The translations under genes were made by a program, and so were the position numbers. Positions 1,530 through 50,198 of a DNA stretch of 64,000 nucleotides are shown here, one piece after another; positions within the stretch are counted from its first letter, which is position 1, and each line of letters starts with the position of its first letter. Source of the stretch: a virus (Duplodnaviria > Heunggongvirae > Uroviricota > Caudoviricetes); IMG/VR virus record IMGVR_UViG_3300042894_008610; one strand, 5' to 3'. The notes beneath the pieces are model-generated. The model was not told where the DNA came from, ran no database searches, and saw only the letters and a list, made by a program, of their open reading frames with translations.

Positions 1530-1901
1530 ATGAAGTATATCATCACCGAAAGTAAATTAAACGAATATATCCTTAGTGTCATTGAAGAAATGTTCCCTGT
1601 TGATGATATTAATTATACTGAAGCGTATGACGATGATGGGAATCCTGACGATACTGCCTATGTGTTTTATCTTGGGGATTATGAAAATGATGAAGTTATC
1701 TTCAGATGGTATAGTAAGGATTATTGGGATGGTCCAGACGAAAGTACAGTTGATTATAGGATTAGACAATCCCCACTTTTAGTTTTTGAATCCAATAATA
1801 CCTTTTATGAAATAAATTCTATGTTCCAAAATTTATGGAAACCCGTATTTATTAAATGGTTTTACGAATCATTTTCATTACCAATTAAAACAATACTTTA
1901 A
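1530..1901 (+). CDS. hypothetical protein; N-terminal ITES-L motif family; paralog of 1903..2262
   Basis: MKYIITESKLNEYILSVIEEMFP; the tandem neighbour starts MNYLITESQLESLVEQ...MFP. Confidence 0.55.
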   Translation: MKYIITESKLNEYILSVIEEMFPVDDINYTEAYDDDGNPDDTAYVFYLGDYENDEVIFRWYSKDYWDGPDESTVDYRIRQSPLLVFESNNTFYEINSMFQNLWKPVFIKWFYESFSLPIKTIL

Positions 1902-1902
1902 T

Positions 1903-2262
1903 ATGAATTACCTCATCACCGAATCTCAGCTTGAATCTTTGGTAGAACAAAAATCCCCGAACAAAAACTTTGATAGATACAAAAAGATTATTATGAAAAT
2001 GTTCCCTGAGATTACTATGATGTTCTTAGGTGATAGTGTGGAAGGTTGGAGTTCATCTGATAATAAAGCATATCAAAAACAAATTATTAAAGTTGTATTT
2101 GACCCACGTAAAATCACTCAAGGTGAATACTTTGATGGATATTCTTATGACGCATATGAATCGTGTCGAAAAGTCCGTAAATTTATGATGTATGACCTTA
2201 ATATGGACTTTGGTCGGCAGTGGGATTTAGATTGTTATCAAATCACTCTTAAAAAACTCTAA
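1903..2262 (+). CDS. hypothetical protein; N-terminal ITES-L motif family; paralog of 1530..1901
   Basis: start lies 1 nt after the upstream stop; shared N-terminal motif. Confidence 0.55.
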   Translation: MNYLITESQLESLVEQKSPNKNFDRYKKIIMKMFPEITMMFLGDSVEGWSSSDNKAYQKQIIKVVFDPRKITQGEYFDGYSYDAYESCRKVRKFMMYDLNMDFGRQWDLDCYQITLKKL

Positions 2263-2472
2263 TCTTTCTGATGCCGGGACCGAATCTTCCCCTACCCCTT
2301 CTTTGGTTATAATCCCCACAATATCTGATAACCTTACGTTCATCGTTACCTTATTGTCAGTTAATCCTACATATAATTCAGGGTTGCCAGGAACTACATA
2401 AAAATCCTTTATGGTCCATTCCTTTTCGTTGTAACTAATCTTCTTACTTATGATTGGAAATGCGTCTCTCAT
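2227..2472 (-). CDS. hypothetical protein
   Basis: 81-aa ORF; 36-nt convergent overlap with 1903..2262. Confidence 0.35.
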   Translation of the reverse strand: MRDAFPIISKKISYNEKEWTIKDFYVVPGNPELYVGLTDNKVTMNVRLSDIVGIITKEGVGEDSVPASERLEFFKSDLITI

Positions 2473-2477
2473 AAAGA

Positions 2478-2633
2478 TTAAATATCTTTCTTGAGTCTAA
2501 ATGTACACGCAGGTTTTCCATTAATTAGTGGCATTCCGTGTTCATCGTATGTGATTGACTTAACCACAACCTTTTTGTTCTTAAATCTACCCATAAGAAC
2601 CGTGTCCCCCACTTTGATGTCAATCTTAATCAT
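2478..2633 (-). CDS. small hypothetical protein (51 aa, MIKIDIKVGDTVLMGRFKNKKVVVKSI..., SH3/KOW-like beta pattern)
   Basis: ATG at 2633..2631, TAA at 2480..2478; below the ORF-track length cut-off. Confidence 0.3.
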   Translation of the reverse strand: MIKIDIKVGDTVLMGRFKNKKVVVKSITYDEHGMPLINGKPACTFRLKKDI

Positions 2634-2636
2634 TGA

Positions 2637-3065
2637 TTAAACTGTTGGTCCACATCCAGGATTTTTGTTTGGTGAGGTACATTTAACACCCGTGTAAAAG
2701 TCAAACTTCTGTGGTTGGACTCTTATGTTATCCCACTCACCGAAATACTCTTTAAACTTACCGTTCTTAATCCTCTCCCTTATCTCATCTAATTGTGGTG
2801 TGTATTTGTTTTGTTGTTTGGCACCATACATAACACTCTCTATCTTTGCTTTGAAGAACGCTCCTGTGGGTCCGAGTTCTACAGGTGTTGATTGTGAAGT
2901 ATCTTTGGTATCATAAAACTTACCGTTCTCACCTTTAACATAGTAACCTAAAAGACTATCAATATCTTTTTCTAATCCACTTAAAACAGTTACAGGGTCT
3001 TTACCTTGTTCAGATATTACACCCATAACTTCCTTAATTCTTGATATTTGTTCTTGTAGGTTCAT
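2637..3065 (-). CDS. hypothetical protein, MNLQEQISRIKEVMG N-terminal family; tandem paralog of 3067..3504
   Basis: first 10 aa identical to the neighbour; 29-nt identical 5' coding sequence. Confidence 0.6.
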   Translation of the reverse strand: MNLQEQISRIKEVMGVISEQGKDPVTVLSGLEKDIDSLLGYYVKGENGKFYDTKDTSQSTPVELGPTGAFFKAKIESVMYGAKQQNKYTPQLDEIRERIKNGKFKEYFGEWDNIRVQPQKFDFYTGVKCTSPNKNPGCGPTV

Positions 3066-3066
3066 A

Positions 3067-3504
3067 TTAACAATCTCCTATACCATAAAAAATGCAGTCA
3101 ATAAGTTCTGCATCATTTTTATCCCATATGTAAACCATAGAATCATTATCATTCATTCTATCCCTACATAATCTATGGTGTCCATCTATTACAATTAGTT
3201 TTCCCTTGTGTTTGTATAAATGAATATCTTTTTTATCATATGTTTCATCGGACATATCATTTACGTAGTCCATATTAATATCCTTTTGAACACTATAAAC
3301 TTTCTTTGTTGGTGACAATCTTTGTTTTTTTGGGTTAAGTGTGTGTATTAATTCATCACTATCATTTACCACCATATCAAAAATGTTTGTGGATTCTAAA
3401 TCTTTTTTTAATTCAGGTTCGTACATAATTCCACAGTCTTTATGACTTTCGGTTATCATCCCCATCATTGATTGTATTCTTGATATTTGTTCTTGTAGGT
3501 TCAT
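3067..3504 (-). CDS. hypothetical protein, MNLQEQISRIQSMMGMITES N-terminal family; tandem paralog
   Basis: as above. Confidence 0.6.
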   Translation of the reverse strand: MNLQEQISRIQSMMGMITESHKDCGIMYEPELKKDLESTNIFDMVVNDSDELIHTLNPKKQRLSPTKKVYSVQKDINMDYVNDMSDETYDKKDIHLYKHKGKLIVIDGHHRLCRDRMNDNDSMVYIWDKNDAELIDCIFYGIGDC

Positions 3505-4247
3505 TACTTTTTATTCTTAACACAGTTAGGATATCTTTTACCAAACATCGTCTTCATACCTTTTTGAGTATATCCTTTCCAACATCTTTCAGTAATCTCG
3601 GTCTCACTTAACGAACCTTTTAATTCATCTGCTTGTCGAGCTCGTAATTTCATCAAATACATTCGTTCAATCCACTCATCAGGCTCTTTTTGAAGTTCAT
3701 CCTTCTTAAATAAAGTATTTGGAATAATAAAGTCAATCATTTCGTCTTTGGTAATACCTTCAGGTTTTGTTGGTGGTGGAACACACACACTATTCATTTC
3801 TTGGTCTACAGATATCTCATCAACATCAATATCATCCCTACCAACTATTTTATTTACCTCATCCAATTGTGTATCTTCAAACCACTGAAGCATCAAGTGA
3901 GTCAAATAAGTCCCTCTAAGTGATAGAATATTTAAAGTTTCTTTGAACTTACCTTTTGGTATAAATAACGTTCCTGATATAAATGCTCGTTCCATCATTT
4001 TTCTTGGGTCATCCCACACACTTTCATCGTTGTGGAAAAATAATGCCAATTCCATTATAATTTTCCCGTCCTTACACCATTCCAAATCGTATCTTGTCTC
4101 ATAATGTTTTATAAGATATACATTGGAACCCTCAACATACTTATTCAGAATGTTATAAACCACTTTTTCTATATTAGGCGTAGGCTTAGTATATTTGGAC
4201 CTAATCTGTTCCATCAATATTTCTTTAACACAATTCGTCAAGTTCAT
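3504..4247 (-). CDS. hypothetical protein (Lys-rich C-terminal tail ...KGMKTMFGKRYPNCVKNKK)
   Basis: the track ORF begins at a GTG at 4289; the first ATG (4247) gives N-term MNLTNCVKEILMEQIRSKY, a weak N-terminal family motif. Confidence 0.45.
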   Translation of the reverse strand: MNLTNCVKEILMEQIRSKYTKPTPNIEKVVYNILNKYVEGSNVYLIKHYETRYDLEWCKDGKIIMELALFFHNDESVWDDPRKMMERAFISGTLFIPKGKFKETLNILSLRGTYLTHLMLQWFEDTQLDEVNKIVGRDDIDVDEISVDQEMNSVCVPPPTKPEGITKDEMIDFIIPNTLFKKDELQKEPDEWIERMYLMKLRARQADELKGSLSETEITERCWKGYTQKGMKTMFGKRYPNCVKNKK

Positions 4248-4330
4248 AATAATAAATACTTGGTTAATATTTATATTAACAATAGCCACCCTGTTATCAG
4301 GGCAATTTAGGACCGTTACCGTTTCGGTAA

Positions 4331-6600: not shown

Positions 6601-6677
6601 TATTAAAAAAAAAGTTTCAACTTGTTTGGGTAGATTAAACGGTAAAAACTTATATTTGTGGGTATTTATCTTTAACT

Positions 6678-7571
6678 ATGAGTGATTACAGACAATATAT
6701 TACGGAATCCGTAAATTTGCGTGACTATTTAACAGATTCTGATTACGAGATTATATTTTATGATATGTTGAGGGATTTTGCCTTCGAGAGAAATCCAAAG
6801 TTATCTCGTAGAATCAATATGTCATATCTAATGACTAATTTTTTAGATAGTTTTATTAAACACTATAATTTGGATAAGAATAAAACACGTTATAGTCCAA
6901 GAGGTATTCCTGCAATTTATGGTCGTGAACTTTATGACGCAGGTTTATATGAAGTATCAATTTATTCACCTGAGAAAAAATTTACAGACACGTTCAAAAG
7001 ATATTTAAATTGGTCAATATCAAAAATGAATATACCTAAAGAAGTTAATTACACCGTAACTGAAGAAATACCTAATAATGTAGAATTCCGTACATTTATA
7101 AATTATGAAGATATTGTTAAATCAGGCCAAGTAAATCCCGAAATTTTAAAATACACGTCTCGTTCATATTCATCTCCATTTAACAAATTAGTTAGTGACT
7201 TGAAGTCTGAGCTAAACCTAAAGAAGGGTAACCCAACTGAAGGAGGTATACAATTTAACGTATACGAAACAGAATATACTGGCCGTCAGGAGTGGACTCA
7301 AAAATTCCTTAAACAACTTAGAAAATTTGTCAAGTCAAACGAGTTTTTAAAAGACAAGGTTAAAGCAATTAAACTAAAAGAAAACAACTACAGAATGGAC
7401 CTCGACATAATTTTAAATAACCCTGACCAATACACATCTTGGCATAGTCGTAGTGAAAATAGAGAAAAATTACAAAATATTTTCACCGTTATTAAAGATT
7501 ACATTGAAGGTGAAGGATATAGTTTATCAGTATTTGAAATAGATTCACCTACTATGAGAAAACACTTTTAA
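6678..7571 (+). CDS. hypothetical protein; N-term MSDYRQYITESVNLRDYL (motif family)
   Basis: 297-aa ORF followed directly by a bidirectional terminator. Confidence 0.55.
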   Translation: MSDYRQYITESVNLRDYLTDSDYEIIFYDMLRDFAFERNPKLSRRINMSYLMTNFLDSFIKHYNLDKNKTRYSPRGIPAIYGRELYDAGLYEVSIYSPEKKFTDTFKRYLNWSISKMNIPKEVNYTVTEEIPNNVEFRTFINYEDIVKSGQVNPEILKYTSRSYSSPFNKLVSDLKSELNLKKGNPTEGGIQFNVYETEYTGRQEWTQKFLKQLRKFVKSNEFLKDKVKAIKLKENNYRMDLDIILNNPDQYTSWHSRSENREKLQNIFTVIKDYIEGEGYSLSVFEIDSPTMRKHF

Positions 7572-8864: not shown

Positions 8865-9530
8865 TTATCTGATTTTACCAACACTAAACCCGTCGCTATC
8901 TACAACAATCCCTGTTCTTTTGAAGAAATTTTCATAGAAGTAGTCATTTAATTCATCTTGTATCTCCATACTAACTTCCCATCCAATCTCCTCATCATTA
9001 ACAACATCTTTCAAATTTCTAGGTTCATAGTCACCTGTCATAACTAAACTAACAGTACCATCTACGATTGCCCAAAAATCAATTCGTTTTAAATCTTCAT
9101 TTACGTGGTAGTTTTTTATTTTGAAGTCAAAGTTGTATCCACCACTTTCTACGTGATGTTTTGATAACAAAAAGTCTAAATTATTTTTAATTATATTATC
9201 AAAACCACCCAACACATTTCTAATTAAAATATGACGAGCTTTTTCAAGAGTCATCCCATTTTTACCAATAAAAAACTCTTTGAATGTGTCATCCAATAAA
9301 GGTCGTTTAGTTAAAACTCGTTTAACAGTCTCATCGAATGATGTGTCTTCATTGATTGGATTTGGTTGGTTATCGTGCCAACACTTATGACAAATGTATG
9401 TGTCATCACCACCTTCAGATATCTTCCAAGACCACCCACAATTATCACATATAACCTCACCATTCTCAACTTTTTCGGTAAGTAATGTCATAACTTGTTT
9501 TATACGTGAAATGTCTTCAGATAGTCTCAT
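8865..9530 (-). CDS. hypothetical Zn-ribbon protein (CDNCGW...CHKCWHD); N-term MRLSEDISRIKQVM (motif family)
   Basis: the track ORF starts at a TTG at 9554; the first ATG at 9530 places the family motif at the N-terminus. Confidence 0.5.
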   Translation of the reverse strand: MRLSEDISRIKQVMTLLTEKVENGEVICDNCGWSWKISEGGDDTYICHKCWHDNQPNPINEDTSFDETVKRVLTKRPLLDDTFKEFFIGKNGMTLEKARHILIRNVLGGFDNIIKNNLDFLLSKHHVESGGYNFDFKIKNYHVNEDLKRIDFWAIVDGTVSLVMTGDYEPRNLKDVVNDEEIGWEVSMEIQDELNDYFYENFFKRTGIVVDSDGFSVGKIR

Positions 9531-9547
9531 ATTAATAAATATCCCTA

Positions 9548-13170: not shown

Positions 13171-14013
13171 TTAGTGTATCAAGACCTTCTCGGTTTTACC
13201 ATTATCATAAAGATAAATTATAATTTCTTCTTTACGAACATTATAAACAGGTCGACCCATCATGTCATACATCCCAATTACTTTTGGTTCAGGTTTGGTA
13301 AATGTAATCACACTTGAAAGATTAGAACGCTTACAAACATCTAATTTCCTAAACATGAATGTGTCCTGACTAACACATTTGTTCCACCATTGAGCAACTA
13401 CTAATACACGACCAGTGTCTTTAAATACAAAGTTAAAAAGCCTTGTATCACCATAACCTAAGAAGTCCGCATCTGGAAAATCATATTCCATTCCAATTTG
13501 GTAATCACTAAGTGAGTCCCACTCACTTTGAGTCATTTTAGCCATCCAAGGTCCTGAGTAGAACATTAAGTAGTAGCTCATACAAGTATCTTTTAATGGG
13601 TAACCTTTAATAGTGCTCATTTCAAATTTATACTGCTTACAACTATTTGGATACACATTCGAACTTACAGTAGCGCCTGGAAACTTAATAATTTCTAAAG
13701 GTCGGTAGATGGCCGTATCACATTTTGTACACCTGTTCCAAACCTTCAAATACATTTTATATTTACCTTTAACATTAAATTGAACTTGAATCAACCCCCT
13801 ATTATCTCTAATAGTATCAGTCTTTTTGGTTTGGAAGTCGTAAACCATAAACATATAATCAACACAAGTGTCATCAAGTACTTGACCACTCACATACCAT
13901 TTGTAAAGATTACGTTGATTTGATTGTTGGAGTTTTAGTGTGCTCCAATCACATTTTGCGTTCGCTGTTGCTAAGGAGACCAAAAGCATTAAAAGCGTAA
14001 ATAGTTTTTTCAT
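13171..14013 (-). CDS. secreted protein with signal peptide and an internal two-domain duplication (Cys-containing)
   Basis: N-term MKKLFTLLMLLVSLATANA; repeated C-x-DYMF/SYYL...WN-x-C blocks. Confidence 0.55.
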   Translation of the reverse strand: MKKLFTLLMLLVSLATANAKCDWSTLKLQQSNQRNLYKWYVSGQVLDDTCVDYMFMVYDFQTKKTDTIRDNRGLIQVQFNVKGKYKMYLKVWNRCTKCDTAIYRPLEIIKFPGATVSSNVYPNSCKQYKFEMSTIKGYPLKDTCMSYYLMFYSGPWMAKMTQSEWDSLSDYQIGMEYDFPDADFLGYGDTRLFNFVFKDTGRVLVVAQWWNKCVSQDTFMFRKLDVCKRSNLSSVITFTKPEPKVIGMYDMMGRPVYNVRKEEIIIYLYDNGKTEKVLIH

Positions 14014-17378: not shown

Positions 17379-17437
17379 AATATTTTTATCTATAAATATA
17401 CAATTACAAAGTATTTATCATATATCTTTGATTCATT

Positions 17438-27472: not shown

Positions 27473-27844
27473 TTACATTGATGGTAACATACTCATAAGA
27501 ACCACATCGTTAGCTCTTAACCCATTTTTAGCCTTTAAATTACACAAATGATTGAATTTATACATATGGTTCGCTTGCATCGTCATATCTTCTAATTTAC
27601 TCAAACTATCACCAGGTTTGATTTTATACAACATTATGTTTTGCACACCTTCGTTTTTAATATCTTTAACTAAATCTTCTTTAGTGAAACAATATTTTGC
27701 ACCGGCTTCAGTTGGTTTAGGACCTTTTTTAAGAATCTCTTCCGCTTTTTTAACGTAAAAAGATTCAGGTTGTGTCTGTTCACTAACAACCTTACGAATT
27801 AAGTTAGTTAATTCTGACTCTGTTAATCTAATAACTTTTTTCAT
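27473..27844 (-). CDS. hypothetical protein; N-term MKKVIRLTESELTNLIRKVV (motif family)
   Basis: 123-aa ORF. Confidence 0.5.
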   Translation of the reverse strand: MKKVIRLTESELTNLIRKVVSEQTQPESFYVKKAEEILKKGPKPTEAGAKYCFTKEDLVKDIKNEGVQNIMLYKIKPGDSLSKLEDMTMQANHMYKFNHLCNLKAKNGLRANDVVLMSMLPSM

Positions 27845-28216: not shown

Positions 28217-29248
28217 TTAAGCCGTCATTGGTCCTTTTATTAATGTATTCATAAACATACCCATTATATCCATTTTTTGTGAACCTAAAGACATTTCGTT
28301 ACCACCATCTTTAACTTCATCTGATACTTTTGGGAAATCCTCTTGTAAATATGTTTGTGCTTCAGGAGTTTTTTCATACTTCTCCATCTTGGCTAATAAT
28401 TCGTCTTCCCCTCCAACTATTTTTTCAAGTTCATCTGGTCCAACAAAATTTGCAACACCTAAATAATCTAAGAATCCTAAATAGAATTTGGTTTTACCCA
28501 TCAAAACTCTAATCTTCATATTACCTTTTCTCCATAGGTCCGAAACTCTTCCAGCACCTAATCCACCACCATAAAAAAATCTTTGTAAAAAATTTGGTTT
28601 GTTTAAAATTGTGGGGTCCAAGAATTTTTCTCTCTTAACTAACGACTCAAGTCCTTGAATTAGTTCTTGTTGTTGTTTAGCAGATTTAGTAGGTAATCTT
28701 TTCGCTAAAGAAGCCGCCTCAGTTCCAACACCTCTAAAAAGTCTTACCCATTCTTTGATGGTGTTTTTAAATCCTCTTGTGATGGCTCCACCAGGTATAC
28801 GGTCAATGAATTCATCAACTTTTGGTGCCCATTCTCTACCTTTTCTTGCGAAAGTACCAAGAGCACCTTCACTTTTAGCAATTTGATTTAGATATTTTTG
28901 CGCTTTAACAGTATCACCAGCATCAACTGCTTTAGATACCGCTCTCATTAATTGAGGTGTTTTACCCCCAACTTTCATCGCTCCCATAACAGATTTACCT
29001 AAAGCATCACCAATGTAAGGGACAACAGAAATTAACGATAAAAAGGCATAAAGGTTATCGCCTTGTCTGTAATAAGATATTGCGTTTATTAAATCAGCAA
29101 TTCCTGTTGGGTCTACAATCCCAACCAAACTTAACACATCATTTTTCCAATTGTCCTCGTTAAGAGTTTTAGTATCAGAAGTTTTTTCCAATACCATAAC
29201 ACTCTTAATGATTTCAAGTTGGGATTCCGTTAATATTACTTGAGGCAT
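28217..29248 (-). CDS. hypothetical protein; N-term MPQVILTESQLEIIKSVM (motif family)
   Basis: the track ORF starts at a TTG at 29272; first ATG at 29248. Confidence 0.5.
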   Translation of the reverse strand: MPQVILTESQLEIIKSVMVLEKTSDTKTLNEDNWKNDVLSLVGIVDPTGIADLINAISYYRQGDNLYAFLSLISVVPYIGDALGKSVMGAMKVGGKTPQLMRAVSKAVDAGDTVKAQKYLNQIAKSEGALGTFARKGREWAPKVDEFIDRIPGGAITRGFKNTIKEWVRLFRGVGTEAASLAKRLPTKSAKQQQELIQGLESLVKREKFLDPTILNKPNFLQRFFYGGGLGAGRVSDLWRKGNMKIRVLMGKTKFYLGFLDYLGVANFVGPDELEKIVGGEDELLAKMEKYEKTPEAQTYLQEDFPKVSDEVKDGGNEMSLGSQKMDIMGMFMNTLIKGPMTA

Positions 29249-29282
29249 AAATTCTTTTACAATAAATACCAAGAAGTTAAAA

Positions 29283-40200: not shown

Positions 40201-40539
40201 CGCTCCTTGAGCACCTTGGTTACCAGTATTACCCTGAGCACCTTGTCCTCCTTGGGCACCTTGATTACCTTGAGCGCCTTGTGGTCCAGCATTTACATTA
40301 CCTTTCCATCCGGTAGAGTCTATTATTAATCCGTAATTGTTTGTAACTGTATTAGCACTTAAATTTGTATTTTGTACTTGGAATATAGGTGCTGTCTTGG
40401 CAATTTTTAGATATGTTGTTGTTTGATTTACAACATAATTCAATGTAGAACTAGAATATACCAAATCACTTCGAGTATTCCCCGAATCATAAAATTGTAT
40501 TGTTATACTTGCAGGTACTATTATTATATTCTCAGCCAC
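37255..40539 (-). CDS. collagen-like (Gly-X-Y) tail fibre protein with C-terminal S74 intramolecular chaperone (auto-processing) domain
   Basis: ~290 GXY triplets ([11 protein letters not shown]...); C-terminus SDERLKKDV...FKW...IGFIAQEV matches the endosialidase-chaperone/S74 motif; GTG start (MAENIII). Confidence 0.85.
37620..40290 (-). repeat. collagen triplet-coding repeat array (9-18 nt period, many near-perfect copies)
   Basis: read directly; generates spurious Leu-rich and Lys-rich ORFs in other frames. Confidence 0.8.
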
Positions 40540-43500
40540 GTAATTTTTCTTCTAATTCAGTTAATGATGTTTTAAGGACATCCATTCTTTTTTGATTTTC
40601 TTTTACAAAAGATACTCCAAGAGTAACAAGTAGTTCATACTGTAAAGATTTATAACCAAACTTATCTTCCCAAACAATTTCAGGAAAATATTTTTCAACT
40701 TGTTGGGCGATAAAACCTATACTTCGTTTTTTAAGTAAATACTTTTCATTGTCTTTATACAATGAAAGTTGTGGTATATTTTCAACCCAATCAAAAGATA
40801 CACCATTCATATTAACAACATCAATAGCTCTATCAAATTTCTTGATGTTTTCTTTCAATCTTCTATCTGAAGGTGGCCCTTGAGGTCCTTGAGCACCTTG
40901 TGCTCCTTGTGGTCCCGTTTTACCAGCATTACCTTGAGCACCTTGAGCACCTTGTGGTCCTGTAACACTAGCACCTTGAGCTCCTTGAGAACCAGTACCT
41001 CCTGCAGGTCCTGTTGCACCTTGAGCTCCTTGGACTCCTTGTGGACCTGTCCCACCTGTAACAGCTCCTTGAGCGCCTTGTGCTCCTTGTGCCCCTGCAG
41101 CTCCTTTTCCTCCTTGAGCACCTTGTGCTCCTGTGGAACCCTGAGTTCCGGCCTTTCCTGTTGCACCTGTAGCACCTTTTGGTCCCGATGGTCCTTGAGC
41201 TCCTGTTGGTCCTTGAGGTCCTCTTGACCCTTGTACACCTTGTCCTCCTGTCTGACCTGCAGCACCTTGAGCCCCCTGTGTCGCACCCGCAGGTCCTTTT
41301 GTTCCTCCCGCACCTTGAGCACCTGTAGGACCTGGACCTCCTGTAGGACCTGTCGCTCCTTGAGACCCTTGAGAACCTTGAGCTCCAGCGGGTCCTTGAG
41401 CACCTTGTGTAACACTCGGATTCCCTTGTGGTCCTTGTGAACCTGTTGCTCCTGTGGCACCCTGAGCTCCTTGGGTACCTCCTTGAGCACCTGTGGCTCC
41501 TTGTGGGCCTTGAGGTCCTTTTGCTCCTTGAGCTCCTTGAGGACCTCCTTGAGCCCCTATCGGACCTTGGGCTCCTTGAGCTCCTGTAGCACCTGTTGCA
41601 CCTTGAGTACCTCCTGTAGCACCTTGGAATCCCTGAGGTCCTGTAGCACCTGTAGCACCCTGAGCCCCTTGAGGTCCTCCTTGTGCACCAACAGGTCCTT
41701 GAGCACCTGTAGCACCTGTAGCACCTGGAGCCCCTTGCGGAGTACCTTGTGGTCCTTGAGCACCTTGAGCTCCTGTTGGTCCTGTAGAGCCTGTTGCTCC
41801 TTGGACCGCTCCTTGAGCACCTTGATTACCAACAGCACCTGTTTGTCCAGTCGCACCTTGTGCCCCTTGAGCACCTTGAGGTCCTCCTGGATTTCCCTGA
41901 GCACCTTGGGCTCCTTGTCCACCTTGAGCACCCTGTGCACCTGTTGGTCCTCCCTGTGCACCTGTTGGTCCTTGAGCACCTTGGGCTCCTTGAGCACCTT
42001 GTCCTCCTTGTACACCTCCTTGAGAACCTGTTGGTCCTTGAGCTCCTGTCGCACCTGTGGCACCTGTCGCTCCTTGCGTTCCTCCTTGAGCACCTGTTGG
42101 TCCTTGAGCCCCTGTTGCACCTGTGGCTCCTGTAGCCCCTTGAGGTCCTCCTTGTGCACCAACAGGTCCTTGAGCTCCTGTAGCTCCTGTGGCTCCCGTC
42201 GCACCCTGAACTCCACCTTGAGCACCTGTTGGTCCTTGAGCTCCTGTAGCTCCTGTGGCCCCTGTTGCACCCTGAACTCCACCTTGAGCACCTGTAGGTC
42301 CTTGTGCACCTGTTGTTCCATTAGCACCCGTTGCCCCCTGAACTCCACCTTGAGCACCTGTTGGCCCTTGTGCACCTGTTGTTCCATTAGCACCTTGAGC
42401 CCCTTGAGGTCCTCCTTGTGCACCTGTTGGTCCTTGGGCACCTGTTGTACCTTGAGCACCTTGAGCTCCTTGAGAAGCTCCTTGTGCTCCTTGTGAACCA
42501 ACGGCTCCTTGAGCACCTTGTGCTCCCTGATTTCCCTGAACTCCACCTTGTGCTCCTGTAGGTCCTTGGGCACCTGTTGTACCTTGAGCACCTTGAGCCC
42601 CTTGAGAAGCCCCTTGAGCTCCTTGTGAACCAACGGCTCCTTGTGCACCCTGTGCTCCCTGATTTCCCTGAACTCCACCTTGTGCTCCTGTAGGTCCTTG
42701 TGCACCTGTTGTACCAGCGGCACCTGTTGCCCCCTGAACTCCACCTTGAGCACCTGTAGGTCCTTGTGCTCCTGTGGCACCTGTCGCACCTGTTGCCCCT
42801 TGGACACCTCCTTGAGCTCCCGTACTACCTTGAGCTCCTTGAGCACCTGTCGTACCCTGAGCACCCTGAGAAGCACCTTGTGCACCTTGTGAACCAACGG
42901 CTCCTTGAGCACCTTGTGCTCCCTGATTTCCTTGGACACCACCTTGAGCTCCCGTAGGTCCTTGGGCACCTGTCGTACCTTGAGCACCTTGAGCACCTTG
43001 TGATGCACCTTGAGCTCCTTGTGAACCAACGGCTCCTTGAGCACCTTGTGCTCCCTGATTTCCTTGGACACCACCTTGAGCACCTGTTGTCCCTTGAGCA
43101 CCTTGAGCTCCTGTCGCCCCTGTCGCTCCTTGCGTTCCTCCTTGAGCGCCCGTACTACCTTGGGCACCTTGGGCACCTGTGGCTCCTGTCGCTCCTTGTG
43201 TTCCTCCTTGAGCACCTGTACTACCTTGAGCACCTTGTGCCCCTGTCGTACCTTGAGCACCTTGTGAACCTCCTTGAGCACCTTGTGAACCAACGGCTCC
43301 CTGAGCACCTTGGGCTCCTTGTCCTCCTTGTGTCCCACCTTGAGCACCTGTACTACCTTGAGCACCTTGAGCACCTGTCGTACCTTGAGCACCTTGTGAA
43401 CCTCCTTGAGCTCCTTGTGAACCAACGGCTCCTTGAGCACCTTGTGCTCCCTGATTTCCTTGGACACCACCTTGAGCACCTGCAATACCTTGAGCACCTT

Positions 43501-43954
43501 GTGCCCCTGTTGTTCCTTGCGCCCCTTGAGACGCTCCTTGAGCACCTTGTGCTCCTACTGCTCCTTGAGCACCAGTACTACCTTGTGCTCCTTGAGCTCC
43601 TGTACTACCACCCCCACCTTGAGCTCCCGTTGTTCCTTGTGCCCCAACATTTCCTTGAGCTCCTTGAGCACCTTTAATAGTTGTTTGTGGTCCAATCCAT
43701 ACACCGGCATTATTAATCATATTTTGACCACCAACCCATAAACCTGATGGTGAACTTGATATTGTAACACCTGTAGTTGTTATGTCATTATTACTGAAAA
43801 CTACTAATGATGGACTTGTTGTTGCAGAAAATTTGACATCACCCGGTGCAACCATATTAATTTGGATACTATCCGCAGCAGACGCCCCCTCGTATACTAT
43901 ATGAGGCGATGAGTTTCCTGTAGTTCCACTTGGATATATTATTACGTCTGCCAT
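40532..43954 (-). CDS. collagen-like tail fibre protein with C-terminal S74 intramolecular chaperone domain (paralog 2)
   Basis: GXY array; C-terminus [11 protein letters not shown]...FDW...[16 protein letters not shown]. Confidence 0.85.
40850..43650 (-). repeat. collagen triplet-coding repeat array
   Basis: read directly. Confidence 0.8.
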
Positions 43955-43957
43955 ATA

Positions 43958-46900
43958 TTAATTTCTTTCAACCTTTTCTTCTAAATTTGTTAATAGAGAA
44001 TCCAAGTCATCAATAAATACTTGTTGCTCTTTTATGGCTTCTACTAAATAAGCGTTAAGTGAGGTATAGTTTAAACTATAATAACCGCCACCCCTTAATT
44101 CAATTATATCTGGTATTACACTTCTAACTTCTTGTGCAATAAAACCAAACGAGTGTAGTTTACCATCTCGTTTCATTGCCTCATAGTTGGGGTCTAATTC
44201 GTTCCAATCAAATTCAACAGGATTTAATTGTAAAACACTTTCTAACGAGTTTTCAATAGTAGTAATTTCTTGTTTTAAACTAATATCTGAAGGACAAGTA
44301 TTAGGAACACCAATAATTAAACAACCTCCTGTGTCTAGGTCGTAATAAAGTGATGATAAGTCATACCATACGGGAGCAGGTAAAGGAGTTACACAACTAA
44401 GATTTGCACAGTCAGTCGCATTTTCAAACACAGATGTGTTGTTAGTCCAAGTAGTAATATCGTCTGGCGAGTATATGTCCCCATAAAATCCGCGGTTTAA
44501 TGAACAAGCACTACCCGGGTCACCCGCATAATAACCTGAATATTGAAAACAAGATGCTGATGGTGGTCCTGCCGGTCCTGGCGCTCCAGGAGCACCCTGA
44601 GCACCTTGTGGTCCCGTATCACCTTGAGCTCCCGTAGCACCTGTTAGTCCGTCGGCACCTGCAGGTCCTGGTGCTCCTTGAGCACCTTGTGTTAACCCTT
44701 GTGCACCTTGTGGTCCTTGAGCGCCTTGTGCACCTTGTGGTCCTTTTGCACCTGTAGGTCCTGGTGCTCCTTGTGCACCTAATGGACCGGCACCTCTAAG
44801 TTCCCCTATTCCCCCTTGAGCCCCCTGAGCACCTGATGGTACAATTGGTGTAGGTCCTTGAGCACCTTGTGCACCTTGTCCTCCACCTGCTCCTTGAGCT
44901 CCTTGGAATCCAAGAGGTCCTTGAGCACCTTGAGTAGCACCTGTTGGTCCTTGAGCCCCTGTAGCACCTTGTGGTCCAGGAAGTCCAGCAATTCCTTGTG
45001 TTCCAACATTTCCTTGAGCACCTGTAGGTCCGGGAGAACCTTGAGCACCTGTTGCACCGATATTTCCAATAGGACCAGGACCTGTTCCTTGAGCTCCTTG
45101 TGGTCCTTGAACACCAGGAAATCCTGTGTTTCCTTGTGCACCTGTGGCACCTGTTGCACCTGTTGGTCCAACATCTCCTTGTGAACCTTGAAATCCAAAA
45201 GTACCGGTACCACCACCAGCACCTGTATTTCCAACATCACCTTGTGCACCTGAAAAACCTGTGGCACCTTGAGCTCCTTGAGAACCTGTAGGCCCAACCG
45301 GACCTGTTGCTCCACCCGCTCCTTGAGAACCTTGAGCTCCTGTAGCACCAGTATTTCCAACATTACCTTGTGAACCTTGAGCTCCTTGAGCCCCTTGTGG
45401 TCCTCCTCCTCCCACAGGACCCGCAAAACCTGGAAATCCTGTAGAACCTTGAGAACCTTGAGCTCCTTGAGCCCCTTGTGGTCCAACGGCCCCTTGAGAA
45501 CCCTGAGCTCCTTGAGCTCCTTGAGCACCTATTGTACCTGAATTACCTGTTGGCCCAAAGACTCCTACCGTTCCTTGAGCTCCTTGTGCTCCTTGTGGTC
45601 CTCCTGAACCTTGTGGACCTCGAGCCCCTTGTGAACCCTGAGCACCTTGTGCTCCTTGTGCACCCACATTACCTGTAGGTCCAACGGCTCCTTGTGAACC
45701 CTGAGCACCTTGTGCTCCTTGTGCACCTTGGTTACCTGTAGGTCCAACGGCTCCTTGTGAACCCTGAGCTCCTTGGGCTCCTTGCGCACCTTGGTTACCT
45801 GTAGGTCCAACGGCTCCTTGTGAACCTTGAGCTCCTTGTGCTCCTTGTGGTCCTCCTGAACCTTGCGGTCCAACGGCTCCTTGTGAACCTTGTGCTCCTT
45901 GTGCTCCTTGTGGTCCTCCTGAACCTTGCGGTCCAACGGCTCCTTGTGAACCCTGAGCACCTTGTGCTCCTTGTGCACCCACATTACCTGTAGGTCCAAC
46001 GGCTCCTTGTGAACCCTGAGCACCTTGTGCTCCTTGTGCACCTTGGTTACCTGTAGGTCCAACGGCTCCTTGTGAACCTGTATTACCTTGAGCTCCTTGG
46101 TTACCGGTATTTCCTTGGGCTCCTGTATGTCCTGTTGAACCTTGTGCTCCTTGAGCTCCTGTTGCACCTCCATTACCTGTTGGTCCAACCGCTCCTTGGA
46201 AACCTGTGTTACCTTGTGCTCCTTGATTACCTGTGTTTCCTTGTGCACCTGTATGTCCTGTTGAGCCCTGAGCACCTTGTGCACCTGTTGCCCCACCATT
46301 ACCTGTAGGCCCTACATTACCTTGTGAACCTTGAGCCCCTTGTGCCCCTTGAGCCCCTTGAGCCCCTTGTGGTCCTACATTACCTTGTGAACCTTGTGCT
46401 CCTTGTGCTCCTTGTGGTCCTGTTGAACCTGTTGGTCCGACATTACCCTGAGCTCCCTGATTACCTTGAGCACCTGTTGGCCCCACGTTTCCTTGTGCAC
46501 CTGTGTGTCCTGTTGAACCCTGAGCACCTTGTGCTCCTGTAGCTCCCGCATTACCTGTTGGTCCTACGTTACCCTGAGAACCTTGATTTCCTTGTGCACC
46601 TGTATTACCAGTATTACCTTGAGCACCTGTATGTCCTGTTGAACCCTGAGCGCCTTGTGCTCCTGTCGCACCTCCGTTACCTGTTGGTCCGACATTACCC
46701 TGAGCGCCCTGATTACCTTGTGAACCTTGTGACCCTGTTGCACCTGTTGGTCCGACATTACCTTGTGCTCCCTGATTACCTTGTGAACCTTGTGACCCTG
46801 TCGCTCCTGTTGGTCCGACATTACCCTGAGCACCTTGATTACCTTGAGAACCTTGAGCTCCCACATTACCTTGTGCACCAGGATGTCCTGTTGAACCCTG

Positions 46901-47536
46901 AGCTCCTTGAGCACCTGTCGCACCTCCGTTACCTGTTGGTCCGACATTACCCTGAGCACCTTGATTACCTTGAGAACCTTGAGCTCCCACATTACCTTGT
47001 GCGCCAGGATGTCCTGTTGAACCCTGAGCTCCTTGTGCACCTGTCGCTCCTCCGTTACCTGTTGGTCCGACATTACCCTGAGCGCCCTGATTACCCTGAG
47101 CACCTGTTGGTCCCACGTTTCCTTGTGCACCAGGATGTCCTTGAGAACCTTGAGCATTTGCTGAACCTTGAGCTCCTTGATTACCCTTTCCACCTTGTGA
47201 ACCTTGTGAACCCTGAGCACCCGTATTTCCAATGGCTCCTTGAGCTCCTTGATTACCTTGGAATCCTGTTATATTTGTTCCAGGTCCTAACCAAGCACCT
47301 GTACCATTTAATACTTGAATTCCTCCAATAGTTAGATTATTAATGATATTAATATCATCATACGCTTGGATACCACCCGATGACATTAATAATGTAGAAC
47401 CCCACTTTATAGAAGTACCAGCACCATAAGGTCTGACCTCTAACCTCAAAGTTCCCGTATTTTCAAAATCAATATAGGGAATCCTTCCGGGATTCGGGAC
47501 TAAATTACCAGGTACAATTGTTATATTTTTTGCCAT
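43958..47536 (-). CDS. collagen-like tail fibre protein with C-terminal S74 intramolecular chaperone domain (paralog 3)
   Basis: GXY array; C-terminal Cys-rich knob then SDISLKQEI...FDW...FGFIAQEV. Confidence 0.85.
44580..47265 (-). repeat. collagen triplet-coding repeat array
   Basis: read directly. Confidence 0.8.
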
Positions 47537-47597
47537 CAGGGATTTTTCTACTCTCTATAAATACAATTCTTATGCTTTTTAGATAAACAAAAAACAA

Positions 47598-47879: not shown

Positions 47880-48187
47880 TAGTTCATTAGTATTTCAGTT
47901 AATTCAGGTGTCGGCACAACTCCTGTTCTTGTCATATCAACTACACCATTTTTGAAGAGTTTTAAAGTCGGTACCGCTCTGATTCCCATCTCTGTTCTTA
48001 CGAAGTCGTGGTCTGTGTCAATATCGTATTTGTATACAGGTATTTTTGTTTCATTCTCAGATGTGATTTTCTCAAGTGATGATAACAATACTTTACAAGG
48101 CCCACACCAAGTTGCGTATAAATCTAAGAGGAAACTTTCCTTGTTATTTATTTTTTCTTTCAATTGTTCTGTCGTTAACTGTTCCAT
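47879..48187 (-). CDS. trx: thioredoxin
   Basis: WCGPCK active site. Confidence 0.85.
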   Translation of the reverse strand: MEQLTTEQLKEKINNKESFLLDLYATWCGPCKVLLSSLEKITSENETKIPVYKYDIDTDHDFVRTEMGIRAVPTLKLFKNGVVDMTRTGVVPTPELTEILMN

Positions 48188-48196
48188 ATTCTATAA

Positions 48197-48505
48197 TTAG
48201 TTTTTTTTATTTAAAAGTGACCTTAAATATATTTCCACAACGTTCATTTTTTCAGGTAAGAAATAACACACAATACTAAATCGTGTATTACTATCCCATT
48301 CCTGTACGTGTAGATATATTTGTTCTTTTTTATTCGCCGAGTAAATCATCTCTCTAAGATTATTTGTAGGGTAACTATCCTTTACGTATACCAATTCAAG
48401 CTTGTTGAATTTTTTACCGTCAATATCAACGTTCCCTAAATTAAACTCTGAAAATATAACCCCCTCTTTTTGTTCAATACTTTCAATATACCTCGGTCTT
48501 TCCAT
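48197..48505 (-). CDS. hypothetical protein
   Basis: 102-aa ORF. Confidence 0.45.
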   Translation of the reverse strand: MERPRYIESIEQKEGVIFSEFNLGNVDIDGKKFNKLELVYVKDSYPTNNLREMIYSANKKEQIYLHVQEWDSNTRFSIVCYFLPEKMNVVEIYLRSLLNKKN

Positions 48506-48557
48506 AATATTATTTTACTACAAAATATATGAAAATAAAAAAGGGAGTAAACCTCCC

Positions 48558-48845
48558 TTAATTTAAAAATATCTTACCGAAAGCATTTTCAATAAATTGT
48601 ATTTGTTCTCTGTGTTTTTCTTTGTTCTTCTTAGGTCCACCATTCAACTTCAAACATATATCAATATATTGTGATTGTGTTAAAGTTATTTCTTCACCAC
48701 TATCAAAGTTTTGTTGTGCAACCTTTTCGATTTCTTTGTAAAACTCTTCTTTCTTTTCTAAGGGAACAAGACTTTTTAAATCATCTTCATTAGAATTGAA
48801 AAACTTCTTAACTCCTGCAATGTAAATTTTTACATCAACACTCAT
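48558..48845 (-). CDS. hypothetical protein
   Basis: 95-aa ORF. Confidence 0.45.
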   Translation of the reverse strand: MSVDVKIYIAGVKKFFNSNEDDLKSLVPLEKKEEFYKEIEKVAQQNFDSGEEITLTQSQYIDICLKLNGGPKKNKEKHREQIQFIENAFGKIFLN

Positions 48846-48863
48846 AACAATAAAATTTAATAA

Positions 48864-50198
48864 TTATCTTCTTCCTTCTAACTCTGTGAAGTCATATAGA
48901 CCTGGACCAACCTCGAATGCCACATCAGTGATTTCCTTAGGTAATACTATATTATTTGAACCCATAATATTCATAATCATAATCTCAGGTAAAGTGGCAA
49001 CACACGCAGGTATTGACTTAACCTCAGGACAATTTAGAACTGCAAAATATGCTAATTTTTTAAGTTCACATATCGCATCAGGAACACTAGTTATACACCC
49101 ATCAAATGTAAGCCTATCTAAGTTTGTGAATCTTGAAATTGTATCAGGAATTCTAAATGTAATTGGTGTTCTAGTGTTTCTAGTTGAGATATTAATTTTG
49201 TGTATGTCGTCAGGTAATGAATCAAATAACTCATCCAAACCATACAACCCAATAAACTTACCTACAGAACCAGACTCAAAGTTATCAATAACCAATTCTT
49301 TACCTTGGTGTGTTAAACCTTTAGCAAATTCAGGTTTGAAGTAATCTTTAAGTTCTGCCATAGGACCGTTCAAATACTCAATTAAATTAACACTACGGTC
49401 ATCCTTATCCATAAACTGATTTGATTGGAAATGGAATTGGTATCTTTCTTTTGGTAATCCTGTTGTTGGAGATACATTAGTATCATTTGGATTATAGATA
49501 ACATACAAAGGTCCGTCTTTAATGTATCTATCGAAGTAACTTAAACCAGGTGCTGAAGTACACCAACGAGTCTCTTGTTGATTACCACCGTAAAAACAAG
49601 CGGCTTCTTTACCTCTTTCTCCTTTATCAGATATCTTAATAACTCTCCAATTTTTACCCTCAAATCCAGATTCAGCACCAGGGTGTACTGGCGCAGCCTT
49701 TCTTTCGGCTTTAGTTGTTGTCGCCATAGTTAAGTCAAAGTCCTTAACAGCATCGTATAAAGCTTCAGGTGTTAGTTTATTGATATCCCTCATTTCAAGA
49801 GGTAACTTACCTTTAAACCTTTTAAACTTGGTCAAATCCTCAGTCACTTTGTAAAGGTCTTCCATAAACCTTTCTCTCATAACTTTAACTTCTCTCTCGT
49901 GACCTTGTTCACCTCTTGGGATTTCAGTCTTAACGTTCATATAACTCTTAATTAACCAAGGAGTGTATTCACCAACTTTAACTCGAGATAATTCCTCTTT
50001 TGATGCTCTTTCCAAATCAACATCATTTAAACGAGATGTTGGGTCGGCTTGGATTAATTCGAAGAACTCTTGTTTGCTCAATGGAGCCTTTAAAGGTTTA
50101 CCTTCTTTATCTTTTTTAGGTAATACAAACTTATCCATCAAAACTTCAAGTCTTGATTGTTCCAATATGATTTTCTTAAGTACGTTTGCGAACTTCAT
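48864..50198 (-). CDS. hypothetical protein with C-terminal leucine-rich repeats; N-term MKFANVLKKIILEQSRLEVLM (motif family)
   Basis: LRR-like LxxLxLxxCxxLxxIP repeats in the last ~120 aa. Confidence 0.5.
   Translation of the reverse strand: MKFANVLKKIILEQSRLEVLMDKFVLPKKDKEGKPLKAPLSKQEFFELIQADPTSRLNDVDLERASKEELSRVKVGEYTPWLIKSYMNVKTEIPRGEQGHEREVKVMRERFMEDLYKVTEDLTKFKRFKGKLPLEMRDINKLTPEALYDAVKDFDLTMATTTKAERKAAPVHPGAESGFEGKNWRVIKISDKGERGKEAACFYGGNQQETRWCTSAPGLSYFDRYIKDGPLYVIYNPNDTNVSPTTGLPKERYQFHFQSNQFMDKDDRSVNLIEYLNGPMAELKDYFKPEFAKGLTHQGKELVIDNFESGSVGKFIGLYGLDELFDSLPDDIHKINISTRNTRTPITFRIPDTISRFTNLDRLTFDGCITSVPDAICELKKLAYFAVLNCPEVKSIPACVATLPEIMIMNIMGSNNIVLPKEITDVAFEVGPGLYDFTELEGRR

Follow-up and report, generated by a model that had tools for sequence, protein, structure and literature searches.

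The window, a 64,000-nucleotide stretch of DNA from a lake phage (Caudoviricetes), encodes nine proteins for which an earlier note had proposed one shared amphipathic motif at the N-terminus. All nine N-termini quoted there are present in the sequence exactly as given, and BLASTP confirms that the protein bodies behind them are unrelated. The idea of a single motif is wrong: the literal pattern matches one of the nine N-termini, and the set splits into three classes. The nine N-termini thus comprise at least three conserved N-terminal peptide classes (hereafter tags), namely A (MKKVIRLTESDLxRIVKRVIxEQ; gene 27473), A-short (MKyIITESQL; genes 1530, 1903 and 28217) and B (MxNLnEeISRIKxMMGxxxE; genes 2637, 3067 and 8865), and two weak cases. 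They are given below together with an internal copy.

1530..1583, + strand: class A-short tag of gene 1530-1901, MKYIITESKLNEYILSVI
1903..1956, + strand: class A-short tag of gene 1903-2262, MNYLITESQLESLVEQKS
3006..3065, - strand: class B tag of gene 2637-3065, MNLQEQISRIKEVMGVISEQ
3445..3504, - strand: class B tag of gene 3067-3504, MNLQEQISRIQSMMGMITES
6678..6737, + strand: degenerate A-like N-terminus (weak) of gene 6678-7571, MSDYRQYITESVNLRDYLTD
9474..9530, - strand: diverged class B tag of gene 8865-9530, true start ATG 9530, MRLSEDISRIKQVMTLLTE
27776..27844, - strand: canonical class A tag, codons 1-23 of gene 27473-27844, MKKVIRLTESELTNLIRKVVSEQ
29195..29248, - strand: class A-short tag of gene 28217-29248, true start ATG 29248, MPQVILTESQLEIIKSVM
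50136..50198, - strand: weak N-terminus of gene 48864-50198, MKFANVLKKIILEQSRLEVLM
55707..55775, - strand: internal A-type copy, residues 337-359 of 55044-56783, VNESVKLTENEIIDLIERIVMEQ

Three peptide classes in the window

The two start codons that had been corrected earlier are right (ATG 29248 rather than TTG 29272, and ATG 9530 rather than TTG 9554), because in both 28217 and 8865 a TATTTAT promoter motif separates the ATG from the TTG upstream of it, and because 28217 orthologues begin at the same Met as ATG 29248. The N-terminal enrichment of the core motif is also real: [ILVM]TE[SQ] occurs six times in the first 25 residues of the 91 called genes versus once in the other 16.8k residues, and 500 residue shuffles average 0.30 occurrences and never exceed 3. 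Class HMMs trained on sequences from other contigs only, and then scored on the nine proteins, recovered seven of them at their N-termini, but neither 6678 nor 48864 was recovered by any class HMM. Relative to shuffle maxima of 9-12 bits, the tags score 22.8 bits for 27473 (class A HMM), 21.5 and 29.2 bits for 1530 and 1903 (A-short HMM), and 34.2 and 28.3 bits for 2637 and 3067 (B HMM); 8865 reaches 11.9 bits with the B HMM vs a shuffle maximum of 9.1, and 28217 is borderline at 9.3 bits with the A-short HMM. Fourteen 28217 orthologues (34-42% identity) all begin M-x-x-I-[IL]-I-[TS]-[EQ]-x-Q-[LM] with TATTTAT ahead, and those at 35-42% identity retain IITExQL. Across all loci, 29 occurrences of the A-short peptide are at most 8 residues from a Met and 4 are farther away, the background being 15.5%.

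For the two weak cases, orthologues of 6678 at 25% identity start MKKIIKITEKELKNLI, and the N-terminus of 48864 resembles class A only over the latter half of the tag. The 48864 body has homologues in 34183-35934 and in a 381-residue relative with a canonical class A tag. Among relatives in this body family, N-termini range from the canonical tag to a degenerate one. The internal copy, absent from the earlier note, lies in a 579-residue charged protein, where a 27473-family HMM detects it at 15.4 bits (E 0.0011). Further, weaker candidates that had been missed are 3504-4247, 16584-17378, 34183-35934 and 51473-51649; the second of these is a GH19-like lysin whose N-terminus looks B-like by eye but scores 3.6 bits with the B HMM.

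A portable, virus-restricted peptide on unrelated bodies

Class A matches 8,961 protein clusters at 50% identity in public metagenomes (E <= 0.001) and at least 120 stretches in IMG/VR, as compared with one match in 596 Gb of cellular genomes (185,579 genomes); in essence, the tags are confined to viral sequence. Placement within the protein is tight: of 127 canonical instances, 119 have the Thr of LTES as the eighth or ninth codon counted from the ATG. For class B, 50 of 50 IMG/VR instances are N-terminal, and the HMM matches comprise 78 N-terminal and 1 internal. Complete class A carriers have a median length of 125 residues, and 121 carrier bodies from viral contigs fall into 73 clusters without BLASTP relation to each other; the class A tag therefore heads at least 73 unrelated protein bodies and is portable. 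Almost none of 112 carriers was recognised in a Pfam search. Proteins with a tag-body-tag-body layout exist, and many database proteins hold a second, internal copy, representing unit-unit fusions.

Pairwise identity of class A tags is 83% over positions 2-22. L7, E9 and E22 are invariant and create L-x-E and I-x-E sites, with L7 and E22, which the search pattern left unconstrained, each present in 86 of 86 sequences. Orthologues of 27473 retain the tag down to 45% identity, and the AlphaFold2 model of this protein has a helix at residues 9-23 (pLDDT 70-78) followed by a confidently predicted LysM-like body.

Late-type promoters and the T4-type heads of carrier phages

The late-type promoter motif TATTTAT recurs through the window, including ahead of several of the tagged genes:

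1507-1513 and 1518-1524, + strand: TATTTAT
4252-4258, - strand: TATTTAT
6663-6669, + strand: TATTTAT
9535-9541, - strand: TATTTAT upstream of gene 8865-9530
17392-17398, - strand: TATTTAT
29262..29268, - strand: TATTTAT ahead of the 28217-27844-27473 gene group
47557-47563, - strand: TATTTAT ahead of fibre genes
50217-50223, - strand: TATTTAT
56797-56803, - strand: TATTTAT

Of the 91 window genes, 23 have the motif 10-30 nt upstream. Elsewhere it precedes 66 of 85 class A carriers vs 35% of background ORFs, and in related contigs also the tail sheath, portal and large terminase (TerL) genes; TATTTAT stands ahead of 43% of the ORFs at loci with the capsid gene and of 15% of those at replication loci. 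Tag density is 2.87 per 100 kb around the capsid gene vs 0.07 around replication genes (~40-fold), a genome has many different carriers, and one 10-kb array can hold several. Carriers thus use a late-type promoter and cluster near head genes.

The phages carrying the tags have a T4-type head module, with matches to Peptidase_S77 (gp21; E 7e-24), the Gp23 capsid protein (E 4e-74) and Portal_T4 (gp20; E 3e-77). The S77 protease matches gp21 in 2,525 T4-like phage records, and the capsid protein of the clade is 74-88% identical across the best 80 loci. A single 296,042-bp contig holds the head module together with an array of A, A-short and B carriers, module and tags also occur together in two IMG/VR jumbo contigs, and in one locus (L121) the genes for protease and scaffold flank a carrier. 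No portal, capsid or protease gene of the window's own genome was found in the ~90 kb formed by the window and ~26 kb of flanks, and the link of this genome to the T4 head type rests on related contigs, synteny with a 280-kb contig and resemblance to the 'moraphages' described in 2025 (PMC12619734), which the carrier phages in general resemble. Proteases of the S77/gp21 family all cleave after Glu (PMC5694885). [quoted passage not shown]

A candidate capsid-targeting tag and its alternatives

We consider it about an even bet (roughly 50%) that the tags are capsid-targeting, protease-removable peptides analogous to the T4 CTS, with packaging and cleavage as presumed steps. Such a role was among those raised in the earlier note, alongside ejection-protein signals and protease-processed propeptides and with the I/L-x-E core likened to a T4 prohead protease site, and is favoured by the T4-type head module, the late promoter, the clustering with capsid genes and the invariant L-x-E and I-x-E, even though the single motif on which it had been based does not stand. 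The alternative of a secretion tag, also raised there, is unsupported for Sec, Tat and lipoprotein signals, as the class A tag lacks a hydrophobic core and has 9 charged residues out of 23. On the favoured reading the N-termini are portable address tags of 18-23 residues, in which a short basic strand (MKKVIR) is followed by one amphipathic helix (SDLxRIVKRVIxE) and which contain hydrophobic-x-Glu sites, fused to hundreds or thousands of unrelated, mostly small proteins in a large clade of uncultivated AT-rich phages of freshwater Bacteroidota with T4-type heads. Carrier genes would be transcribed late alongside head and tail genes, and the tag helix would dock the cargo within the prohead during its assembly, on the inner surface or on the scaffolding core. 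A gp21-family (S77) prohead protease might then cut after Glu, at L-T-E(9) and/or I-x-E(22), removing the tag, and the freed cargo would remain in the head beside the DNA and be delivered to the next host cell. Within this series, we infer that the tag has a partner to dock on and is cleaved off, and that cargo resides in virions and is ejected. The labels appear to be undescribed and mark about 9,000 protein clusters.

Several observations count against a removable capsid-targeting tag. In helical, Glu-rich sequence a hydrophobic-x-Glu pattern carries little information, and the internal copies show that a free N-terminus is not required. The tag also exceeds the T4 CTS in length and, by far, in conservation. 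The LysM-like body and the GH19-like lysin (16584-17378) could be cargo that works outside the capsid, and strong conservation could have another source in a very conserved host partner. A rather unlikely alternative is that the tag serves for docking on a conserved hub, either cellular or phage-encoded, such as DnaK/DnaJ or a Clp protease, acting as a folding or delivery handle or as a timed degron. The tag does outlast the bodies, staying nearly unchanged in family members down to 45% overall identity, DnaJ is encoded in the window (51775-52710) and Hsp70 and ClpP in a relative, and the hydrophobic core with basic flanks (RIVKRVI) resembles known DnaK-binding motifs. However, the carriers have late-type promoters, sit close to head genes and are very scarce in replication regions, and the highly conserved capsid protein offers a phage partner as well.

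The late-type promoter and the head-gene clustering would fit equally well with an external virion anchor that is never removed, by which diverse adhesin-like or enzyme domains are held on a common capsid, neck or fibre socket. Some bodies resemble binding modules (the LysM-like fold; a weak LRR match in 48864-50198), and the phage is heavily invested in collagen-like fibres. We nevertheless judge such an anchor unlikely, given the many different carriers per genome, with several in one array, bodies that are mostly small, acidic and unrecognisable, and the presence of the tag on no known structural protein; the invariant Glu in x-E sites and the S77 protease fit removal better. A membrane-targeting helix or non-classical export signal that brings late proteins to the envelope, for instance for lysis, is quite improbable. 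The class A helix is strongly amphipathic (hydrophobic moment 0.69) with a basic polar face, and a LysM-like carrier body and the B-like look of the lysin N-terminus would suit this role, but invariant acidic residues (E9, D11, E22) are unusual for membrane-binding helices, the mean hydrophobicity is -0.29 with no core for Sec or Tat, the moment of class B is only 0.35, and the lysin N-terminus scores poorly.

Conservation could in principle be a matter of the nucleic acid (DNA or mRNA), with the peptide a by-product of a leader for translation initiation or of a recombination site that shuffles gene cassettes; carriers do share a conserved promoter, a short A-rich leader and an AUG AAA AAA start, and in T4-type phages conserved regulatory cassettes can mediate modular shuffling. 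Codon analysis largely refutes this very improbable reading. L7 is encoded by five different codons, Leu and Arg change codon family (TTA/CTA/CTT; AGA/CGT/CGA) while the residue stays invariant, and two sequences use the same codon for the same residue at a frequency of 0.61 vs 0.53 expected from body codon usage. Codon choice at synonymous sites is thus nearly as free in the tags as in the bodies, which places selection on the peptide rather than on the DNA, and internal copies retain the peptide as well. Finally, chance resemblance in an AT-rich genome, to which the poor fit of the originally proposed pattern and two individually non-significant N-termini might point, has a negligible probability and is already refuted for seven of the nine by shuffle and other-frame controls, by HMMs built independently from other contigs and by thousands of external instances at N-termini.

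Comparison with known systems

A constant N-terminal address on variable cargo is also seen in cellular signal peptides and in the N-terminal trafficking domains of polymorphic toxins; unlike cellular signals, the tags are virus-restricted and have no hydrophobic core, twin-arginine motif or lipobox, and the T9SS signals of Bacteroidota are C-terminal. The coat-binding helix of P22 gp8-type scaffolds is likewise short, amphipathic and basic and docks a protein inside the procapsid, but it is C-terminal and confined to a single protein. The putative scaffold of the tag-carrying phages ends ENPQFLRMKDLMGKLK, which appears class B-like by eye and scores <8 bits with the B HMM. Among jumbo phages, phiKZ, 201phi2-1 and SPN3US encode a gp21-like protease whose sites are three-residue motifs cut after Glu, the long N-terminal propeptides of their head and ejection proteins are believed to direct these into the prohead, and paralogues share conserved N-termini (PMC5694885). 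Those propeptides are mostly >100 residues long and specific to each protein family, with an A/S/G-x-E motif, whereas the tag described here is portable and common to unrelated proteins.

The T4 CTS has 10 residues, compared to 18-23 residues in at least three classes here, and the tags are much more strongly conserved, head thousands of cargo families and also occur internally and in duplicate; the hosts here are Bacteroidota, and packaging and cleavage are presumed. The T4 peptide reads MKTYQEFIAE, and to our knowledge the two sequences are not similar. What the tags have in common with the CTS of IPI, IPII, IPIII and Alt, which gp21 removes, is a short N-terminal peptide on unrelated, fast-evolving small proteins (PMC3012670, PMC9026906), in phages whose head genes are of the gp23, gp20 and gp21 types, with hydrophobic-x-Glu and with a constant tag on variable cargo.

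An N-terminal peptide shared by unrelated proteins

In orthologues of gene 27473, even at 45% identity, the first 23 residues are nearly unchanged, and a profile of its first residues retrieves hundreds of proteins that have only that stretch in common. A word-indexed protein search with a 42-residue profile gave a best 120 that were all at most 74 residues long and is little informative on cargo size; we used an exhaustive profile search and DNA pattern scans in its place. Of 1.84 billion cluster representatives, 8,961 matched in the exhaustive search at E <= 0.001, 880 of them at E <= 1e-10, and in nearly all of the best 150 the match lies at residues 1-27. A degenerate DNA pattern for TESDLxRIVKRVI matched IMG/VR contigs of 4-321 kb in more than 120 stretches (a lower bound) and, among 185,579 bacterial and archaeal species (one genome each), one 3.3-kb contig only. 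Together with two further classes of N-terminal peptide, this one is referred to below as a tag, and the tagged proteins as carriers; carriers of different classes stand side by side within single loci.

Tag classes, their consensus and the window genes (named by coordinate) that carry them
Class A: MKKVIRLTESDLxRIVKRVIxEQ; gene 27473
Class A-short: MK[YI][IL]ITES[QK][LYF]; genes 1530, 1903 and 28217
Class B: MxNL[NQ]E[EQ]ISRIKxMMG[LVI]xxE; genes 2637, 3067 and 8865

The earlier note had aligned the N-termini of these seven genes and of genes 6678 and 48864 to a single pattern. All nine N-termini are present in the sequence, both start codons that it had corrected are right, and BLASTP finds no significant mutual similarity between the bodies, in line with its claim that these are unrelated. 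The pattern itself fits literally in just one of the nine, and the set is heterogeneous. The core [ILVM]TE[SQ] is nevertheless enriched at N-termini, with six occurrences in the first 25 residues of the 91 called genes against a single one in the 16.8k residues beyond, as compared to a mean of 0.30 and a maximum of 3 in 500 residue shuffles. When the regular expression was replaced by class-specific HMMs built from other contigs only, seven of the nine window genes were recovered at their N-termini (9.3-34.2 bits vs. shuffle maxima of 9-12 bits). Gene 28217 is borderline in this search but can be retained because its orthologues, at 35-42% identity, all keep IITExQL. The two genes that fall outside are 6678, which the class HMMs do not recover and whose distant orthologues begin MKKIIKITEKELKNLI, and 48864, for which the assignment of a tag is weak: one member of its body family has a canonical class A tag, and the others have degenerate N-termini. 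Together, the shuffle controls and the recovery by external HMMs largely exclude chance as the origin of the tags.

All three classes lie predominantly at N-termini. The Thr of class A is codon 8 or 9 from the ATG in 119 of 127 instances; the class B pattern scan gave 50 instances on 48 stretches, every one of them N-terminal, and the class B HMM gave 78 N-terminal matches and one internal; class A-short lies within 8 residues of a Met 29 times and elsewhere four times, with a background of 15.5%. The cargo varies. Complete class A carriers range in length from 29 to 470 aa, with 125 aa as the median, 121 carrier bodies form 73 clusters without BLASTP similarity between clusters, and Pfam recognises almost none of 112 carriers. 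A single paralogous family with whole-protein homology can therefore be rejected, given the unrelated bodies and the range from canonical to degenerate N-termini within one body family. Cargo that is mainly peptidoglycan-binding can be rejected as well: no such Pfam domain occurs in the 112 carriers, and the LysM-like fold predicted for the C-terminal half of the 27473 body is a weak resemblance with weak E-values.

A conserved DNA-level element is likewise largely excluded. In class A, L7, T8 and E9 are invariant, as are I20 and E22; L7 and E22, which lie outside the constraint of the search pattern, are each found in 86 of 86 instances, L7 with five different codons, and Ser and Arg show switches of codon family. 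Pairs with the same residue share the codon 0.61 of the time vs. 0.53 expected from the codon usage of the bodies. Invariant residues with varied codons mean that selection acts on the peptide.

Many database proteins contain two copies of the tag, in the order tag-body-tag-body. The internal copy keeps the KKVIR part and has lost the Met, which suggests that such proteins arose as fusions of neighbouring carrier genes. Two further window genes have related features:
55044-56783, minus strand: 579-aa, highly charged, mosaic-like protein with a degenerate N-terminal tag; residues 337-359 are an internal class A copy, and the C-terminus is B-like; its segment FDFDYDEEEFDDYDSF... also forms the body of tagged proteins encoded separately (e.g. 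P0195 and L027)
3504-4247, minus strand: protein with the C-terminal motif CWxGYTQKGMKTMFGKRYPNC, which recurs at other loci on proteins with differing N-terminal tag classes

In an AlphaFold2 model, residues 9-23 of 27473 are predicted to form a helix (pLDDT 70-78, vs. >90 for the body). Taken as a helix, class A shows strong amphipathicity, a polar face that is basic and a mean hydrophobicity of -0.29. None of the searches made linked the tags to a Pfam or PHROG family, a PDB chain, a cultured phage record or a paper: Pfam and PHROGs have no match over the tag in the nine proteins, a PDB profile search gave a chance-level match only (the C-terminal helix of ribosomal protein eL34, E 0.03), BLAST found neither the tag nor gene 27473 among 50,697 cultured phage records, and a full-text literature search with the peptide strings returned no relevant paper.

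The phage of the window

The window derives from freshwater metagenomes, and Lake Mendota samples are among those that contain this genome. It has ~32% GC and is densely packed with genes that lie mostly on the minus strand and lack Shine-Dalgarno sequences. Besides a sigma factor (60903-61703), SbcC, an RNA ligase and two DNA methylases, it encodes:
31344-32507, minus strand: glutamine synthetase
51775-52710, minus strand: full-length DnaJ
54288-54461, minus strand: Hc1-like histone
16584-17378, minus strand: GH19-like lysin, behind a TATTTAT motif
59296-59907, minus strand: Amidase_2 lysin
37255-47536, minus strand: three consecutive fibre genes with collagen triple-helix repeats (~1,100-1,200 aa each) and a C-terminal Peptidase_S74 chaperone domain
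24042-24451, minus strand: full-length GOLLD RNA (Rfam RF02032, 307.5 bits, E 4e-87)
24981-25055, minus strand: tRNA-Met, adjoining the GOLLD RNA

The GH19-like lysin may be virion-associated; with the class B HMM, though, its N-terminus reaches only 3.6 bits. The fibre genes have a GC content of 46-51%, vs. 32% elsewhere in the window. The stretch at 23.6-25.3 kb is poor in ORFs because the GOLLD RNA and the tRNA sit there; it is kept in 10-11 related loci, where tblastn scored 'protein' matches to ORFs 23675-24082 and 24548-24889.

The gene set matches that of the moraphages, lake jumbo phages of 200-307 kb with predicted Bacteroidota hosts that have T4-like tail, portal and capsid proteins and a 'prohead core protein protease' in common, and whose auxiliary genes include glutamine synthetase and DnaJ; they also encode a protein that, in the authors' suggestion, may compact the genome (PMC12619734). 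N-termini are nowhere mentioned in that paper. A 280-kb contig is syntenic with part of the window at 42-68% amino-acid identity. Among the 50,697 cultured phage records, none matches the first 25 kb at the DNA level by BLAST, and the sigma factor has distant matches only (<40% identity). A Bacteroidota host is supported by Bacteroidota-specific domains, namely Por_Secre_tail (the T9SS C-terminal sorting domain) with Ig_7, and the SprB repeat, in phage proteins of two related loci:
L179 16056-17756, plus strand
L182 6059-7765, plus strand

The head genes of the window's own genome were not found in ~90 kb (the window with flanks of 8 kb on the left and ~18 kb on the right), and walks outward from both ends met only replication genes and genes of unknown function. 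Several related contigs of 90-99 kb with different ends had pointed to a complete circular 93-kb genome without capsid genes, but this can be rejected: one contig stops within a collagen-repeat gene, and the contigs together span at least 150 kb. The ends are therefore assembly breaks, which occur at the collagen repeats, and the genome is larger.

Promoters, head genes and tag density

Two types of upstream motif are seen in the window. TATTTAT lies 10-30 nt before the ATG of 23 of the 91 genes, including the fibre genes, and a Bacteroidota-type TAnnTTTG box precedes others such as the Dam methylase; examples set against the TATTTAT genes are 50245-51084, 21303-22043, 22145-22609 and 61709-62251. 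Of 85 class A carriers, 66 have TATTTAT upstream, vs. 35% of other ORFs in the same loci, and the motif often directly follows a terminator hairpin. In related contigs it also precedes the genes for tail sheath, portal and large terminase, and it is found before 43% of ORFs around capsid genes vs. 15% around replication genes. We read TATTTAT as a late promoter, which the window's own sigma factor (60903-61703) may recognise.

Related contigs, through their own genes, show an S77 protease and a T4-type head together with tags. In loci fetched solely for holding a tag, the neighbours are a T4-type head module in its customary order, Portal_T4, Peptidase_S77 (Pfam E-value 7e-24), acidic scaffold-like protein and Gp23 (4e-74), and the protease matches gp21 of 2,525 T4-like phage records. 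In locus L121 a class A carrier gene lies between those for protease and scaffold. An internal class A copy is present in the protein encoded directly after the capsid gene. In the contig Ga0645785_00125 (296,042 bp), the head module occupies 26-48 kb, and carriers of classes A, A-short and B form an array at 111-131 kb; head module and tags also occur together in two IMG/VR jumbo contigs. Tag density is 2.87 per 100 kb around the capsid gene (27 of 80 loci), vs. 0.07 per 100 kb around a replication-region gene of the window's relatives (1 of 80 loci); the window has 6 tags in 64 kb.

The acidic protein in scaffold position between the S77 protease and gp23 (loci L119, L121, L147 and L068) is 460-540 aa long and has an invariant C-terminus, ...ENPQFLRMKDLMGKLK, that looks class B-like by eye. 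Mimicry of the scaffold by class B was rejected, as this C-terminal helix scores <8 bits with the B HMM. Two other features of the head modules are:
L147 12215-13924, minus strand: intein (PF14890) inside the T4-type portal gene
L342 6606-6794, minus strand: ribosomal protein S21 gene (PF01165) in the head module of the 296-kb contig

Readings of the tag and known systems

A tag for prohead loading is favoured by the common position, by the variability of the cargo, by the head and protease type of related contigs, and by the presence of L-x-E and I-x-E sites. Cargo made late would carry the tag as a docking helix that loads it into the prohead; the S77 protease would then remove the tag, and the freed cargo would be ejected at the next infection. 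From docking onward these steps are our inference, and the hydrophobic-x-Glu of the tags is a match to a protease site at the level of sequence, as distinct from evidence of cleavage. Three rivals remain. The tag might dock carriers to a chaperone or protease, and these phages do encode DnaJ, Hsp70 and ClpP; it might anchor proteins to the outside of the virion; or it might be a membrane-targeting helix. A Sec, Tat or lipoprotein signal peptide can be dismissed, since 9 of the 23 residues of the consensus MKKVIRLTESDLTRIVKRVINEQ are charged and it contains no hydrophobic run (the window does have true signal peptides, e.g. 13171-14013), and a ribbon-helix-helix DNA-binding fold of strand and helix was dropped because the residues following the tag vary.

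If the tags do direct packaging, the proteins injected into Bacteroidota by a large and abundant group of uncultivated lake phages could be listed from sequence alone; the list would comprise thousands of families of unknown function, likely including anti-defence and host-takeover effectors. Foreign proteins could then be loaded into phage heads with tags that are ready-made, and the T4 capsid-targeting principle would extend from a few proteins of a single model phage to a system that is general and strongly conserved. A bolder proposal, which we consider rather unlikely, is that classes A, A-short and B, together with a weaker 'second-half' class, form an unrecognised protein-sorting code of this jumbo phage clade, in which different tags send a large, fast-turnover effector repertoire to different destinations in the virion or infected cell, much as signal peptides do in cells. 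Were it true, the ejected-effector arsenal of uncultivated phages would be readable directly from sequence. Whatever the mechanism, a 23-residue peptide that is near-invariant across ~9,000 protein clusters and for which no database entry was found needs explaining, and is directly testable.

The internal proteins of T4 are highly diverse and conserve only the capsid-targeting sequence (CTS), which encapsidates them into the scaffolding core (PMC3012670). For IPIII, targeting needs no more than the first 10 residues; processing by gp21 depends on residues 8 and 10, and in T4 an Asp at the cleavage position stops processing while leaving targeting intact (PMC9026906). The gp21-family proteases from T4, phiKZ, 201phi2-1 and SPN3US all cut after Glu within a three-residue motif (PMC5694885). 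The T4 CTS is the closest known system: the tags are likewise N-terminal, on variable cargo and, in related contigs, accompanied by a T4-type head and protease, and they likewise contain sites of the protease type (hydrophobic-x-Glu), with L-x-E and I-x-E invariant in class A and a phi-x-E at the end of class B. The IPIII CTS is presumably unlike the tags in sequence, and T4-like phages themselves differ in their CTS. Unlike the T4 CTS, the tags are slightly longer (18-23 residues), extremely conserved, divided into several classes, present in internal and duplicate copies, and attached to thousands of cargo families.
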